Source of the DNA: Raja brachyura | Lineage: Eukaryota | Assembly: GCA_963514005.1 (NCBI GenBank) | Contig: OY740807.1 | Location: 17,546,001-17,610,000, forward strand | Length of the DNA stretch: 64,000 bases | Reading direction: 5' to 3' | Shown here: one piece after another, positions 14,799-52,100 of the stretch | How positions within the stretch are numbered: the stretch's first letter is position 1 | Layout: the number at the start of each line of letters is the position of its first letter | Program-made: the position numbers and the translations under genes | The notes under the pieces: generated by a model | Told to the model about the DNA's origin: nothing | Databases searched by the model: none | The model's input: the letters and a program-made list of their open reading frames with translations, nothing else

Positions 14799-15066
14799 AC
14801 AAGCCGCAGTGGGAGCCGGCGTGGGCACATCGTCCCTGCAGAGCACTGAGCGGAGCGGCGCCGGGAGCAGTCAAACACCCCCTCGGTCTACCGCCCCCAT
14901 CCCCACACGTGGGCGGCTAGACCGGCAGCTGAATGCAACGTGGGTGGGGCGACCCGACCCGGCATCACCAACACCCTCATACAGCTCCCGGGCCGTTCTA
15001 CCCCCCGCCTCAGCGGGCCAGGGAGATGGAGGTGTAACACAGATAAACCCGCCTCCAGCGGTTATA

Positions 15067-15487
15067 GGGGACGGGTCCCACACACACTGGCACTCACTGG
15101 GGGACGGGTCCCACACACACTGGCACTCACTGGGGGACGGGTCCCACACACACTGGCACTCACTGGGGGACGGGTCCCACACACACTGGCACTCACTGGG
15201 GGACGGGTCCCACACACACTGGCACTCACTGGGGGACGGGTCCCACACACACTGGCCCTCACTGGGGGACGGGTCCCACACACACTGGCACTCACTGGGG
15301 AACGGGTCCCACACACACTGGCCCTCACTGGGGGACGGGTCACACACACACTGGCACTCACTGGGGGACGGGTCCCACACACACTGGAACTCACTGGGGG
15401 ACGGGTCACACACACTGGCACTCACTGGGGGACGGGTCCCACACACACTGGCACTCACTGGGGGACGGGTCCCACACACACACACTG
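15067..15487 (+). repeat. 33-bp minisatellite (gggggacgggtcccacacacactggcactcact), about 13 copies
   Basis: Near-identical tandem units. One inverted unit at ~15797-15846. Confidence 0.95.
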
Positions 15488-34012: not shown

Positions 34013-34127
34013 CTACCAGCTGTAGCCAGCAGGGGGAGCCTTGTCATCCTTATTGCTCTCCAGGGAGAAGGGTGGGATCCGCACATCGAGCTGTGAACCC
34101 TCGGGTCTCTCAAAGCGAAACGTCCCC
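34013..34127 (-). CDS. POLDIP2: POLDIP2 exon 11 (canonical terminal exon)
   Basis: ctacag|G GTFRFERPEGSQLDVRIPPFSLESNKDDKAPPAGYSW*. Confidence 0.95.
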
Positions 34128-37100
34128 CTGTAGACAGGATGAAAGGAGCAGATTAAATGATACAACTCTACTGCGCCTGAGGCCGTAGTCCCTGGCACAG
34201 CAACCAGGGTCTGAGTTCTCCACTCAGATAGGTTGTGTCAGCTCTCCCAGTCACCCAGGTGGTTCCCCGAGGGGCAGCCTTTACTGATGCGCCCTATCAT
34301 CGTGTAATATGTACTCCACAGGCTGCATCTTCAGGTTCCTTCTCTTGGGCCACAAGCACTTGTTGCCCCACTTCTTGCTCAGTCAATGCTGGAAACCTGT
34401 TCCAGTTCCTATTCACTCTTGTATCTCTCCACACACGATACCCAATCTCCTAAGTATCTCCAGCGTTTGCATTGTTTTGCTTTGATTCATGAACGACTGA
34501 AGTCCAGTCAGGGGCGAGACGTTTATGGGTGAAGAGGTCCAACGCTGCAGGAAATGCAACTGGTTCCTCTTCTTCCACTGGGCCCTGCCACCATGTGCTA
34601 GGCTTTCCGTGGGGGTAGAAGATTTCACACTGGGATACCATATGCTAACATTGAATAAGGGGGGAAACAGATAATCCAATCAAAAATGTTTATTTAAACT
34701 AGTCAATAAACATCAGGAGCAGGAGCACAGATATAGGCACAGCAAATAATGAAGCAAATTTCACTCAGGTGTTCTTGGGTAGGTTTTTATACAGTGATTG
34801 CTGGTAACTGTGTGGCCTCACAACAACTGGCCTTCCCAAAATGCTGAAGAGCGCCACTCCTGACATAACCTGGGTCCAGAACTGTCCAAAGCCCAACTGG
34901 TTGCTAAACCCTGGCACCAAGTACCCATCTGGCAGATCATCTCTGGATACTCTGCAGTAATAAGCAGAGTATCCAATGGCTCTGTAGCTCATCAAGGCAA
35001 CAGGAGCAATCACCAGGGTTGGATACGAATCAGCACGGACGTTCAGACACAAGTAATGCCCCGTCCCAGGGTATTCAATAATTCCATACTGCCAGTAAAC
35101 AGTGGCAGAACAAATTCCAGCCACTGCTTTAATCAAACATTTCTGTGCTTGTTAATCCACCTGACTTGTACCTATCGCTTTCTGGTGTAGAGACAAGCCC
35201 AATATTGCCCCCAGTGCTACATAGGGAGACATGTACCAATCAAATTTAGACAGTAACAAACCAGCATCTACCACTACTGGACCCAGACTAAACAGAAAAT
35301 AGCCTAATGTTACTCAGTGACAGAAGTCCCCACAAGTACTGTACCCCAGTGTTATACAGTGACAGACATGTCTCCACCAATACTGCACCCCAGTGTTATA
35401 CAGTGACAGAAGTCTCCACCAATACTGTACTCCTGTGTTATAAGTGACAGATGTCCTCACCAGTTCTGTACCCGTGTTATAGTGAGAGCCGTCCCTATCA
35501 ATACCGTACCCCAGTACTTAACATAAAATGTTGCCATAGCAACAAGTTTGAAAAACAGAATATGGAACTGTTTTGTAGCATTGGCATAGGTCATCCATAC
35601 CATTACACATATTGGGCTCCCAAGTACCAGGGGTACACTATTGTCCTGTCTCCAGTGAAGTTTGATTCTTATATAACTTCACAATACAGTACAGCGGACC
35701 TCATAAAAGCAAGTAGAACAGAGAAAGCACACAGCACTGTTTCTCCAAAAAGGTGCTCCTGGACTACAGGACAATTAGCAAGAAGCCAATCCTGCTCCTA
35801 ATTAATATGTTATTAATTAACCCCAACTCAACACCAGCAACCATTTACCCTGCCACCACTCACCTCATCATCTCCATCCAAATCTACCTGCCTCAACTCA
35901 CCTCATCCATCTCCATCCAAATCTAACCCCCAACAGAAGCCTGAGTGAGTGCGCATATTATGGTGGAACTGGCCACATGTCCCTGTGCAGAGGCTGGTGA
36001 TGTGCCACATCTTTGTCCAGGCAGCACGACCCCTGGAGTTGGGTCCACTGGTGCTCTGGTTCGAGGAAAGATCCTGAGTGCAGACTGTGTTTAGTTACTC
36101 CATCATTTGCTGGAGGCAAATACTCAGACCGGGGAGGAGAAGGGCCCGCCGTCCTCACTACTGCTCTCGAGAGAAAAGGATGGGATGGAAACATCAAAGG
36201 TGCTGCTGTCTGGCCTTCGGAAAGTGAACGAGCCCCTGTGGAAGGTGCAAACAGTAATAAGCAGCAGCAATCTGTCCATCTGCTTTAGCACAGCTCCACA
36301 ACACACTAAAAACCCCAAACAACCCTGCCCCTCCTAACACTTCTTCACATTTCTTGTACAAGGTAACCTCTATAGCCATTTACCCCATCTCCCGAACCAA
36401 TCCCGTTTAACACAGGACATTAATCATATCAACACCCCCTTATTTACTGAGAATTCACCCATGTCTGTCATAAATATATACAAACTCTGTTTTCATAAAC
36501 CTTTGCGGTAGAAAGTTGCCGAGTCACAACCTTTTAAGAGAAAAAATCTCCTTGCTTTTTAACAGAAGCCTCCAGTTCTATATTTCTCAACAAAGGGAAA
36601 TATTTTTTTTACCACATCCATCCTGTTAGATCCTCTGAAGATCTTTTATTTTTCCGTCAAATTGTTTCACATTTCCAAATTCCAGGAAATACAAGTCCAA
36701 CCTCTCCAACTATTCCTCGTTGCGTAACCAGCCTATTTCTGCACCAGTCCAGCAAAATTTATCGGAACTGCTTTCAACTCATTAATATCCTTCCTTAAAT
36801 AAGGTTGGTACTGTGCACAATATTCCAAGTGGTCTCAACAACATCTATTTAACTGCACATAACACCTCCACTTATGTAAACAATCCCCAAAGCAATTAAC
36901 AATAACATTGTTAGTTTACAGGGTTATTTGCCAAACCCCATTAATCCTTTAGCTTTAAAGAAGGAACTGCAGATGCTGGAGAATCGAGGGTTACACAAAA
37001 AGCTGGAGGAGATAGGCGACGTTTCGGGTCGAGACCCTTCTTCAGACTGAAGAAGGGTCTCGACCCGAAACGTCGCCTATCTCCTTCGCTCCTTAGATGC

Positions 37101-40100: not shown

Positions 40101-43100
40101 GAGCGAGATGTCCGTCGGGGAATGTTGCCGACTGGCCCACTGCAGACTGCAGGAGTACGTACTAAGGGACGCACTGAAGCTCGGTGCAGCCAACGCCAAG
40201 GCTCGGTGGGGGAGGGCCACAGTCTAAGGTCCTTCCGCTGCTGGACATGGGGGGCACTGTATGGTGGAGACGCCCCTCAAAATAAGGGAAGGTATCCCAT
40301 GCCGGGGGGCCACATGAGTGGCACGGGTGGGGGATTAATTAGTAAAATTTGAAAATGTATATAGACTGCATGGAAGAATTTGTATAGCCTCCGAAAATGT
40401 CGGATGGATTTTTCGCACGGTTGATGTATTGTAAATATTTATTACTTGAATAAAGTCTATTTTGAAATATTAAAAAAAATATATTCCTTTTAAGTAATAA
40501 GGTGACAACATTTTAATTCAGAGATCACCTACAACAATCCTATCTAATAGCCTGACATACTGCTTGGTACGTTCAATATTGGTCAGAGGCAGCAAATGAG
40601 GCATGGTAATTGATGCGATTATTTAAAATACTGATAAAGGAGAATGGAAAAAAATCACACTATTGCAATAACTATGTAGTATGCCATTGTCCAATCATGT
40701 AATACACGTCTACAAACTGCTGCAGCAATGCCATAAATGTACCTATCATTACGGCATCATAGTATGAATTGGTGAAATTCTCATCATTCTACAGTGATAG
40801 TCAGTTCTATCCAACAGGAACAGATACCTCACCTTCTGGTTATTGTTGAGCCTAACTGAACTTCTATTCCACAGATTGGGGTCAGCACAAACCTATTTCC
40901 CCAAAGTCTATTGCTACCTTTACACTTTTTATCATTGTAGTGAGAGACTGCAGTAACTACCTCGTACTTAGGTTAAGGAGGAGAATGGGCCTGGCAAGAA
41001 CCCATTGGGAGAGTCGCCGTTGTTGCTTTCGAGGGAGAATGGTGGAATACGAACATCGAGGAGACTCCGGTTGGTGCTCTCAAAGCGATAGGAACCCCTG
41101 TGGAATGCAGAGACAAGATCAGTCTCCGGAAATGGCCCCCCAACAACTGATTATAGTATCTATGGAAGCAAGGCTAGGAAAGTGGGAAGGGAGGGGGTTA
41201 GCTGGGATAAAATCTAAAGGGAAGGTTTATTCATAGACTCTTGTGAGTACAGTACCCATGGACATGCTCTTATTAACACATTCCAAATCAGTCTTTCTGA
41301 GAACTAATGCGTTGTTTGTAATGTAATAAAATACCCTCGACGTCTCTCAGAAGTTTGAGCAAACATGATTAGGACACTGATCCTAGGGAGATATCAGAGA
41401 ATCACAAAATGTTTGCAATCCCCACATATTGCACTTGAGACTCAAGGGAGGGTTCCCTGTCTGCCCTGAGCTCAGCCACGCTGGGAAGTGTGGGGCTGGA
41501 AGGGAAAGTCTAACACAGACCTTCAACTGCAGCAAGCCTCCTGGAAAGGAGAAGCAAGCTCAATGGGTGACCGTAGCATACACAAAGTATGTTTTTTTGA
41601 CTTAGTAAAGCATAAGCAGGCAATCAGTGACCTAGACAACTCCCTATATGGGCTCCAGGAGCTGGGTAATGGGGGTGGGGGGGAAGAGAAATCCTAAGGG
41701 CAGAAATTGCTGAGTCCCAAGACATAGGTCTCTAAAGCAATCCCCAGTGGAAATCATAATTACTGAAATTTACAGCTCTGACAGAGGTCATTCAGCCCAT
41801 TGTATTCTTGCTGGCCAAGAGTCACTGGATTTTGTGACGCATTTCCTAACTCTCGGTCAGTGACCCAGCAGGTTGTGACTGTCATCAAGGAGTGTGGTCC
41901 CCCTCACCATATCAGCAACTCAGAACACTTCAATAAATAAACAAATCTCTGCGTGCAAAACACAAATTGCTGAAGTAACTCAGTAGGTCACGCAGCATCT
42001 CTGGAGGGAATGGACGGTAACATTTCCGGTCGGGAGCCCTTCTTCAGACTCTGCATGCCATTCTCCCTCCTCCAACTCCTCTCATGAACGTTGTCACTTA
42101 CCTCCAGTAAAGGGACATAGGTAACTGCTATGGTAACTGCTATCTTTACTACCAAGAAAAACAAACAGTTTCTCATCAATTATAATTTCCATCTTGGAAC
42201 CATCCTCTGCACCTCTCTGGTGCTGTCACATCCTTCCCACTGACGTTGTTGGCCAATTGATGACAGTGCCAGTGAGATCGAGCTGCTCCAGCGTGCAGTA
42301 TCTTGCACTGAATCCCATCTGCTGATCTGCACACCAGTCCCACTGATCTCCTCTACAGCCCAAAACGTTTCTCCTCAGTACCAACTGCACCACTTATTCT
42401 GGTAGCTGAAACGAACATCTTGATTATGACCACTATATCCAAGTCCAATGCACTACAAAAATACAAATGAGTGGACTCTATGGAAGCCCATTACTTACAG
42501 CCCCCTGATCACTAAAACCCTTTATCATCTATTATCTTTGCTTTCGGCCACCAAATTCATTTTTAAACCAAGACGATTTTTCAACCAGATCCCATCGACC
42601 TTCCCTTTGATGATCAGACTGCTGTGTCGACTCTACCAAACATCACGCTAAGATCCACACAAAGGCAAACGCATCCATATTCGATTTATGCCACCCCTTG
42701 GAATTTTATCCATCTGTTACCCACCACCATTGGCAGCCCAACAGACCCACAGTTACACAGTTGTCCCCTTTCTCTTGTTAAACAATGGTATTGCATAACT
42801 ACATTCCAGCCATTCAGTAAATCCCCTCCCTGCTCTTAATCCTCATGCACATTCACCAGATTAATTTTGAGTAAGATTTGGCTGAATCCCATGGACAGCT
42901 GGGAATAAATCCACCAGAGAGCACTGAAGTGGTTAGGAATAATTGGGTTGTGAAAATTAGGCTGGATTATATGGGAAGCCCAATTCGCATATTGAAGATT
43001 ACAAGGTCATGGAGGGAAATGCCAGAACATAACTAATATTTCATACATCTTGTATTCAAAGACTGAGCATGAAAATCTCAAGTGAAATTTAAAGAGCAGA

Positions 43101-49100: not shown

Positions 49101-52100
49101 AGTGTTCTCCATCTTACAGCACAGCTCTAATATACTCTGTCAAGAGTTCCACTGAATCTGACCAGCAATGTTTCTCCAGTCCTCAAGGCCATGCTTCGGG
49201 AGCACAAACAGGAGCCCTGTATTAGCGGTAGAATAATTACACCATCTTACAAACTAAGAATCACCCACCCCTTCAGTCGCCTGCTGCCCCATCTAGGATG
49301 AGTTTGCTGCTCAATCATTTCAGCCACCGCACAATGCACAAAAGCACAGTGAAAATAAGTCATCCTTGATCCTAAGAAAGATACCTTTAAACGGATTATA
49401 ATAAACTAGTCCAAATTTTAGGAAGCCTCTTAAATCTCTCAAGAACAAATTAATTGTGTTATATCACATCAACTATTTGTATATTTTAATTTACTCATTT
49501 GCAGAAAGTTTGTGTACAGCTCATCTGAAATTGCCTCTGTAAAAGGTCGTGGTGGGAGTTTGATGAGTTGATTTCCTGAACTGCTGCAGTATTTCTCCTG
49601 AAGGTGGAGGAAAAGGTATTCTGAACTGAACAAGCCACACCAGCAGATACCTCCAAACACAGCATGCCTGGGAGCAGATACACAGGAGCATTAGAGGTTG
49701 GCAAGATTTCATTTATTATACCATGCCAAGTTTCTTGAAACTAGTCTGCATTATCCTTGCTGATGAAACTCTGGTAAATAAATTGCTGCCCTATGAGGCC
49801 AAGTGTTAACAAAAAACTAATTTGGAAGCAGATTTAATATCCTCATCATCATCATATAGACATGATAACTTTACCCAAGGCTTTCCTTAAGGCACTTTGC
49901 ACTGATCTCCCCTGCAGGTGAAAATAAGTACGTCTTTGTTAGCAAATCAGTTCACAACTTAGTTTGACATGCTCATTTCTAAAAATAAATTGTTCCCTGT
50001 AAACATAGTTCTTGCAATATGCATCTGTCAAGAGGATCATCAAGAACTGTTTTTGGGAGCTATGTGATAGCTGAAACATGATTATACACCTGTGTACTGA
50101 GCACTATGTGATAACAAGGCCACTGTGACTAGGCAGACAGTATATCTGCCTCGATTGTTCAGTGCTAGACTTGCTAAATCACCCATTAACACATGAATTC
50201 CATTAATAAGTGCCCCAGACACTTTGTTTACTTATATTTACATTCCTCAGGTTGCAGCAACATCAGATACACATTTCAAACTGCTTATTGCTCAAACCAA
50301 GCCCTTCTATTTTACCAGTCTTGATGAAATCCTTGGGCACACCAGAGCGTTAAATGGAATGGGGAGCTTAATATAATCAAATATTGTAAAGCTTGCTTAA
50401 AGAATAAATCAAACATGATCTTAAAGAACATCACAGTCTGAAGGCTCACCACATGAAATATTACCAATTCATGTTCTCTGGAGATGCTGCCTGAAATTAT
50501 TCTTGCAATGTATTTTAAAAGAGTAAATTCTTGGGAATACTGGGGTGGTGGGGAGCGAGATGGGATCAATCAGCATCGCATGGTACTCACCCTGCCCACA
50601 ACTCCTCTTCCTCGCACTGTCTCCAGCGTCCCAGACAGGCTAAAGATCCGCCAGTGCCTTTCCCGAAGCTGTACCACTTCAGTCCCAAGGTTCTCTAGTC
50701 GGATACAGTATCGCCACTGAGGAAGGAGACAGTGAGATACAATCAGAGCCTCAAAATGAATCAGCATCAGTCCACAGACCTGTGTGTGCTCCTGTGTCAG
50801 CCGCCCTTTAAACTTCTTGCATGTTATTCCTACACTGGTATTCCACTTAGTGCTCAAGATGTTTTCCCAGGCACAAAAGTAAAACTGGAATCTGCGTTAA
50901 TAGAGGGGGGGGGGGGGGGGGTAAATTGTAGCATTGGCTGTTGAGTGTTTCTACAGAAAAATCTTCACCTGGGGGCAGCAATGCAAGGAGATGGGAAGCA
51001 GCAGCATCAATCACTTCCAACAGATGGGAAACCATAGGATTCAGCAATCCATGAAAAGTTGCAGCATCGCTGCCCTTTCTAGCAATGGCTCACAGTCATT
51101 ACATTGGTTTTGTGCAGTCGAGAGCCATGGATCTCAGGGCTGAGAAGCCACATCTTTTGCCCTGCCTGCCCTACACCAGCCCTCATAGACGGTCTTCACA
51201 GCAGCTCTGTGGATCAGCCACACCAAGAAGAACATGGATGAGATCAGCATTCCAGCGCTACCACCAGATTCAGGAACTGCTTCTTCCCCAGTCATCAGAC
51301 TGCTGAATGGACTTCTCACAAGCTAAGGTGTAGCCCTGATCTCCCACCCTACCACTATGTGACCCTTGCACCCTTTCTTTTTTTGTCTGCACTTCTCAGT
51401 CGCTATAAGTTTGTATTCTGTACTCTGTTTATTTCTTCTCTTTGCACTGCATATTGTACGTGTATAGTTTGATTGTACTTGGGTACGGTATGATTTAATT
51501 GGATAGCACACAAAACAACGTTTTTCACTGTATCTCAGTACACATGACAATAAACTAATACCTACAGGAGCATCAGCACAGGGCAGGAATTTGCACAAGG
51601 CTCCCGCATAGCGCAGGATCAAATCTCCCTAACGTATAGGACCAATGTAGTAATTCAGCAATCTACAGGATAGTGGCAGTCATAGTACCAAGATATTGAA
51701 TTGCTGGATTCATCAAAGTACGATAGATTAGACCCAGGCCAGGTGACGGCAAAGCGACAATGTCAAATGTCAGCAATGTGGATAGGAACAGTGCTTGCCT
51801 CTCGTGGATCAAGACCATATGACAATTGAATGTTGAATGTGCTCTTAACCACATGGACCTCCAACAATCCCTCCCTTGACTACTCCATGTCAGACCCCCT
51901 GCGCCCTCCCAGCTCCAAAACCTCCCCTCAGAAAAAAATCTCTCACTTCCTTCCAAACAGAAAACCCCTCTCTTCCACTATTACACAAACTATCCCCCTT
52001 TAATCTTTTCTCCCCCCAGTTCCTCCCATCCCATCAGATAGTACTGTTTCATTTCTATTTCTTACTATGGCTGTGTTTGCAGTATTTGCCATGTGAATAT

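Follow-up and report, generated by a model that had tools for sequence, protein, structure and literature searches.

Three paralogous terminal exons of POLDIP2 in the skate Raja brachyura and their distribution among vertebrates

How many C termini can the POLDIP2 gene of the skate Raja brachyura encode, how old are these alternatives, and what do they change in the protein? We analyzed a 64,000-nt stretch of contig OY740807.1 (hereafter the window), for which an initial annotation had proposed two paralogous terminal exons that replace one another. On its minus strand the window harbors an entire POLDIP2 gene, whose ten common exons run from 63021 to 48031 with AG/GT borders and keep the frame open over 968 nt, up to a phase 2 end. 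Coding exon 1 (62888..63021) opens with the ATG at 63021 and, by analogy with human POLDIP2, likely encodes a mitochondrial presequence; it is followed by exon 2 (62135..62216; AG/GT boundaries and an open frame), exon 3 (61625..61722) with the YccV-like domain (Pfam PF08755 on orthologues), exons 4 (59944..60043), 5 (58484..58559), and 6 (54932..55039), exon 7 (53070..53206), in which DUF525/ApaG starts, and a 27-nt exon 8 (52171..52197). Exon 9 (50591..50716) contains the arginine cluster and the GxGxxG motif common to all isoforms, residues whose function is taken from the human protein. The last common exon is exon 10 (48110-48031), which, as had been annotated, ends in phase 2; a GT donor follows it. 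The N terminus is near-identical to that of the skate proteins P0001 and P0012, and PF08755 and PF04379 are both above cut-off in skate isoforms with each of the endings A, B, and C described below, i.e., YccV-like and DUF525 domains in one chain. On the basis of human data, skate POLDIP2 is presumed to be imported into mitochondria and to bind CLPX. Reading through the exon 10 donor (48033-47948, minus strand) leads to an immediate stop with an AATAAA 78 nt further, and database models from Cetorhinus, gar, lamprey, and chicken end at this donor; such read-through may yield a fourth ending, made by intronic polyadenylation and missing the final two strands of ApaG.

Behind exon 10 and on the same strand, the window contains three rather than two paralogous terminal exons. 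Exon A (40968..41097) comprises 42 codons and a stop and completes a 365-aa isoform, exon B (36124..36235) comprises 36 codons and a stop for a 359-aa isoform, and the human-type exon C (34013..34127) comprises 37 codons and a stop for a 360-aa isoform; each has an AG acceptor in the phase of exon 10, an open frame, and a single stop. The peptides and coordinates of B and C and the lengths of their isoforms are just as initially described; the intact exon A, missed at that stage, first surfaced at 41097-40968 in a motif scan of the window. A leave-best-out BLOSUM scan of every 24-codon position on both strands (~128,000 positions) scores the three copies at 161, 145, and 138, with the next best at 39, and an HMM built from 99 distinct POLDIP2 tails gives exactly three matches in the window, which are A, B, and C. 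Neither analysis finds a fourth or decayed copy in the 64-kb window. Elsewhere in the genome, the B peptide retrieves a single match (G000:C1, E 4.07), which is unconfirmed in three frames and treated as chance. Exon C is the orthologue of the human ending (E 1e-15 to 6Z9C), and the exon tree discussed below agrees. The contrast of basic and acidic tails that had been drawn between the isoforms is wrong, as the net charge is -1 for the C peptide (5 K/R, 6 D/E), -3 for B, and -1 for A. The RPD and FDV of B do match the human sequence as claimed, but RPD varies among B sequences, with RPG in Rhinoraja and RAD in sharks and chimaera, and of the RPE and LDV ascribed to the canonical copy, LDV/LDI represents a change in C of cartilaginous fishes.

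Sequence comparison places the origin of these copies far back. The cores of A, B, and C are pairwise identical at 13 to 17 of 24 amino acids; those of B and C are colinear with 15/24 identical residues, in line with the initial annotation, and share 15, 19, and 7 of 24 nucleotides at codon positions 1, 2, and 3. Between the paralogues of the window, pN is 0.20-0.29 versus a pS of 0.58-0.93, and synonymous sites approach saturation. As had been noted, B and C are unrelated over their 300 nt of upstream sequence (score 17 versus 18.0+-2.1 in 200 shuffles); the downstream comparison took in the coding tails and is thus no clean test of the flanks. At the DNA level only the cores of A and C align (75% over 87 nt). 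A recent segmental duplication or an assembly artefact is rejected on the basis of the dissimilar B and C upstream sequences, the restriction of DNA alignment to the A and C cores, and the near-saturated synonymous sites. We consider it very likely that exons A, B, and C are real and under selection. The acceptors of A (41113-41098) and B (36253-36236), both on the minus strand, have TGCA..TTCCACAG in common, which fits a common origin or a shared splicing element.

As for the surroundings of the gene, a search with short motifs of TNFAIP1, the neighbor of POLDIP2 in human, finds no convincing match in the window. Pfam analysis of the 150 longest of the 212 ORFs below 34.5 kb recovers nothing but a LINE-type endonuclease fragment (7758-8621, minus strand; PF14529, E 1e-12). 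A GC-rich tandem repeat with a ~33-nt unit (about 15,000-15,480) opens long reading frames without Pfam matches, and a 79-nt near-perfect palindrome (37007-37085) is found in a SINE-like element between exons A and B.

Since A, B, and C each have their own stop, they do not belong to the internal type of mutually exclusive exon. By a crude consensus count, the best donor-like match after the stop of A is 6/9 and none of at least 6/9 lies near the end of B, compared with 6-8/9 for the ten constitutive donors. An own stop in each exon and the lack of a strong donor nearby lead us to regard all three as alternative last exons rather than internal cassettes. Candidate poly(A) hexamers are found about 450-530 nt behind A (ATTAAA at 40517 and AATAAA at 40443, within 40438..40517, in a U-rich context) and 1430 nt behind B (AATAAA, 34694-34689), all on the minus strand. 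The latter had been proposed to end the proximal isoform; the hexamer exists, but it is a candidate signal only, with one seen versus 0.56 expected in the interval between B and C, and over 48-30 kb the eight hexamers seen versus 5.9 expected are not above chance. The A and B endings rest on computed database annotations, and the spliced Logan products in our sample (P0021, P0022, and P0181) are all C-type. RefSeq alternative isoforms are usually backed by RNA alignments. In two models of Scyliorhinus torazame and one of Bagarius, two of the exons are joined to each other. In the S. torazame model P0160, the last B codon is spliced into C in another frame and yields a short basic tail; the B-to-C join in the window (36130 / 34127, minus strand) would add few residues, and its donor is weak.

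We next consider how the three endings are distributed. By querying with exon A and with the C-terminal part of the A isoform and then looking up three clusters, we collected 366 proteins, drawn from the best 120 of 555 matches and up to 15 members per cluster. Among these are 62 type A tails, 24 B-like tails (20 from jawed vertebrates and four from lamprey), 268 C or invertebrate tails, ten proteins without the anchor motif, and two non-homologous endings. All three types are annotated in Rhinoraja (XP_078278715.1, XP_078278717.1, and XP_078278718.1 for A, B, and C, respectively), Callorhinchus (XP_007894668.1, XP_007894670.1, and XP_007894669.1), Acipenser ruthenus (XP_033904826.3, XP_033904828.3, and XP_033904827.3), Heterodontus, Pygocentrus, and Colossoma. 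Type B is further found in Carcharodon, Scyliorhinus torazame, eel, salmonids, Salminus, and Astyanax. Type A occurs in chimaera, rays, sharks, bichirs, sturgeons, paddlefish, gar, and bowfin, and, among non-acanthomorph teleosts, in mormyrids, herrings, loaches, pike, and salmonids. POLDIP2 models of lamprey have one of two endings, which is C-type or an alternative of A/B type, GPFANLV (four proteins).

A tree of 47 chosen exon peptides over only 37 columns separates A, B, and the lamprey alternative from C and the invertebrate endings (support 100/99), a split that we take as supporting evidence only, since it leans on the tail itself; B forms a single clade (90/89), and A is not recovered as one. 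Because lamprey has C plus one exon of A/B type, the terminal-exon duplication likely predates the split of lampreys and jawed vertebrates; the last common ancestor of lamprey and teleosts is dated to over 500 million years before the present in passages of PMC3516227. The initial proposal of an old exon duplication, kept by selection and giving rise to alternative last exons, is supported by B orthologues that extend from chimaera to salmon, neither absent nor disrupted, and by pN below pS. Old as it was taken to be, the age was understated, the array being far older than the cartilaginous fishes. The same data bear on whether, in R. brachyura, the duplicates A and B have fallen silent or are decaying and the database isoforms are propagated predictions. 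The somewhat long branch of skate B (0.22 in the exon tree) and its altered terminal motif are what one might expect of decay, yet acceptors and frames are intact with near-saturated synonymous sites, intact orthologues are found across the whole jawed-fish tree, and A is the sole terminal exon in the Amblyraja and Leucoraja models seen; we judge such silence highly improbable.

Lampreys and the caecilian Geotrypetes also have a second, divergent "POLDIP2-like" gene with another tail (P0089, P0185-P0190, P0099, and P0301); a search of the skate's own genome with the B peptide, a weak test, finds none. The B peptide matches 0 of 5 candidates among longer proteins, and phmmer with this peptide against 1.84 billion 50%-representatives returns two unrelated repeat proteins; both database searches are uninformative because the isoforms are hidden inside clusters.

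Two lineages appear to have lost the additional exons. A or B tails are found in 0 of the 87 tetrapod proteins sampled (83 C, two without the anchor, and two with unrelated endings; two caecilian "POLDIP2-like" paralogue rows, neither of them A/B, are left out of the count) and in 0 of the 70 acanthomorph proteins sampled, the sample being without coelacanth, lungfish, and hagfish. With an A-type query, the top 26 matches (114-147 bits; next 93) are all from cartilaginous or non-acanthomorph ray-finned fishes, a ranking that we take as fair evidence for the absence of A from tetrapods and acanthomorphs. The evidence is weaker for B, as B-type representatives score near the bottom of the best 120 of 555 matches, with up to 15 members per cluster. 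A tree of exons 1-10 from 41 chosen proteins, with terminal exons left out, contains a clade (97/97) in which all seven acanthomorph rows stand with 11 C-type rows and none of the 17 A/B carriers. One teleost duplicate gene appears to be C-only, and on the simplest reading one copy would have dropped A and B after the teleost genome duplication, with acanthomorphs keeping only that copy.

What does the exchange alter in the protein? The exchanged part comprises the final two strands of ApaG with their loop and the C-terminal tail. In a model of the B isoform, the exon contributes strand 337-347 in full and the second half of strand 322-331 (pLDDT about 70-88), and residues 350-361 form a low-confidence coil; mean pLDDT is 45.8 overall, and only the DUF525 part, with eight strands, is usable. 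This modelled domain matches the ApaG domain of FBXO3 (TM 0.79), and its fold matches 6Z9C and ApaG domains. AlphaFold of the A isoform (mean pLDDT 34.0) is too low to use. Strack et al. (passages of PMC7647994) describe one DUF525 sheet as beta12-beta11-beta14-beta15; with the eight model strands mapped onto this numbering, the swapped exon would encode beta14/beta15, in the same sheet as the strands holding R282 and R297. Kulik et al. (passages of PMC8138528) assign CEACAM1 binding to the beta16-beta17 loop, which by strand mapping would be the loop inside the swapped exon.

Other functions map elsewhere. According to passages of the respective papers, PrimPol stimulation requires human R282 and R297 (PMC7913696), CHCHD2 binding requires the GxGxxG motif (bioRxiv 10.64898/2026.03.14.711777), and CLPX docking occurs through the N-terminal domain of human POLDIP2, the ApaG domain being the proposed substrate-binding module, with no CLPXP ligand identified in that structure paper (PMC7647994). 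These mapped determinants are all in the shared exons, and the edge strands of the hydrophobic cleft, by strand mapping, are probably there as well. A change of the PrimPol or ClpXP functions by the swap is accordingly unsupported: with R282, R297, and the CLPX-docking domain outside the exchanged region, any such effect would be indirect.

The exposed surface separates B from the other two types. In human numbering, all 14 B peptides have T/S/N at 335, Q/R at 337, S/A at 347, and S at 350, positions that remain R/K, E, R/K, and P in A (16/16), invertebrates (8/8), and, apart from one Cys at 335, C (15/15). The alternating positions 334, 344, 346, 348, 351, and 353 are still hydrophobic in B, and this alternation would place the changes at 335, 337, and 347 on the exposed face. 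The loss of R335, E337, R347, and P350, which are kept in invertebrates and nearly all A and C peptides, together with the sufficiency of the N-terminal domain alone for CLPX docking, would suit a dominant-negative or decoy role in which B (and the lamprey alternative) docks on and stabilizes CLPX without client engagement by DUF525. We regard this as quite improbable; the B positions vary little or not at all among 14 sequences, a pattern more in keeping with gain of function than with its loss, and the GxGxxG motif and arginine cluster are unaltered.

A and C have almost identical strand cores across species and differ in their tails. The C terminus of A and B is (G/S)P(F/Y)xxL-hydrophobic, and C ends in PP(A/S)G(Y/L)x-aromatic. 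The unstructured A tail is near-invariant from chimaera to salmon. Constraint on the tails is not uniform, as the A motif is frameshifted or shortened in Heterodontus, Scyliorhinus torazame, and Narcine models, and skate B ends in SSPV, its penultimate residue being Pro, as against ASLV in sharks and chimaera. In Heterodontus isoform X1 (P0016), the A tail is apparently frameshifted past the SP dipeptide, which appears to be either an assembly error or a real loss of the terminal motif.

The near-identity of the A and C cores, the location of known binding determinants in shared exons, and the 3' UTR that necessarily comes with each exon raise the alternative that the array matters for alternative 3' UTRs or protein half-life, the coding copies merely completing the domain of interchangeable proteins. 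We consider this unlikely, given that completion of the fold requires neither the near-invariant unstructured A tail nor the class-specific, fixed surface changes of B.

The reading that we favor, and hold to be probable, is that each transcript uses one last exon, which gives three adaptors with different client surfaces and tails and a tissue-regulated choice among them. Before lampreys and jawed vertebrates split, the ancestral last exon would have given rise by duplication to C and a precursor of A and B; this precursor would have gained the GP(F/Y)xxL-hydrophobic C terminus, and a second duplication, ahead of the separation of cartilaginous and bony fishes, would have produced A and B. 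Both would then have been lost towards tetrapods and, independently, from one of the teleost duplicate genes, which is the sole copy seen in acanthomorphs. Cleavage and polyadenylation behind A or B would compete with splicing to an acceptor further on, and this competition, probably by tissue, would set the choice; for A or B to be used, the transcript would have to be cleaved and polyadenylated before splicing reaches the next acceptor. The three isoforms would have in common the presequence, the CLPX-docking domain, and most of the ApaG domain, with the differing last strands, loop, and tail conferring different partner or substrate preferences. The A isoform would keep the ancestral strand surface and change in loop and tail only. 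The B isoform would remove two exposed arginines from the sheet that bears the PrimPol arginine cluster, and for this reason is predicted to differ most in binding.

More tentatively, and on balance doubtful, early vertebrates may have had a splice switch on a mitochondrial CLPXP adaptor, in which A, B, and the lamprey alternative end in a so far undescribed short binding motif, GP(F/Y)xxL-hydrophobic, that retargets or times proteolysis, be it as a degron recognized by a matrix protease, as a plug for the protein's own ApaG groove, or as the ligand of a tissue-specific partner. If so, a control layer some 500 million years old would persist in fishes and would have been discarded twice, including in our own lineage.

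The arrangement of last exons in tandem is itself a known class, and the isoforms are already modelled in RefSeq and UniRef. Passages of Martinez-Gomez et al. (2022, PMC9741552) count 77 C-terminal cases among 236 human substitutions derived from tandem exon duplication and cite the tropomyosins with three duplicated 3' exons. The POLDIP2 array resembles this class in having ancient, homologous 3' coding exons in tandem, each able to replace the others in frame: the exons are homologous, the replacement is in frame with a stop, and the copies are ancient and under purifying selection. Unlike the human events described in those passages, the POLDIP2 swap cuts through the beta-sandwich fold of a mitochondrial protein, and tetrapods appear to have lost the additional exons. 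Human POLDIP2/PDIP38 (PDB 6Z9C and 6ZLX; passages of PMC8138528 and PMC7647994) has the same YccV-like and DUF525/ApaG domains and the exon C ending; no A or B ending occurs among the 87 tetrapod proteins sampled, and the word isoform does not occur in the main text of the structure paper. The RefSeq and UniRef models encode the same A, B, and C endings as computed isoforms X1-X5, under names that convey nothing of paralogy, age, or function. POLDIP2 is not mentioned in the passages and supplement of PMC9741552 or the searchable supplements of PMC4494069, and a literature search with bioRxiv supplements and most subscription journals outside its range found no description of duplicated POLDIP2 last exons.

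The new element is that an array of three exons, roughly 500 million years old, is recognized in a mitochondrial protease adaptor, with a shared terminal motif and two apparent losses. Each exon version has been conserved over hundreds of millions of years, and these three natural versions of the last two strands and tail are ready-made variants for mapping surface to partner. The array also illustrates clearly how old splice isoforms can be lost, which appears to have happened once on the way to tetrapods and once in a teleost duplicate gene. It carries a warning, since medaka, fugu, and mammals show only one of the three ancestral forms, whereas salmonids, characins, sturgeon, and skates retain all three or most of them.
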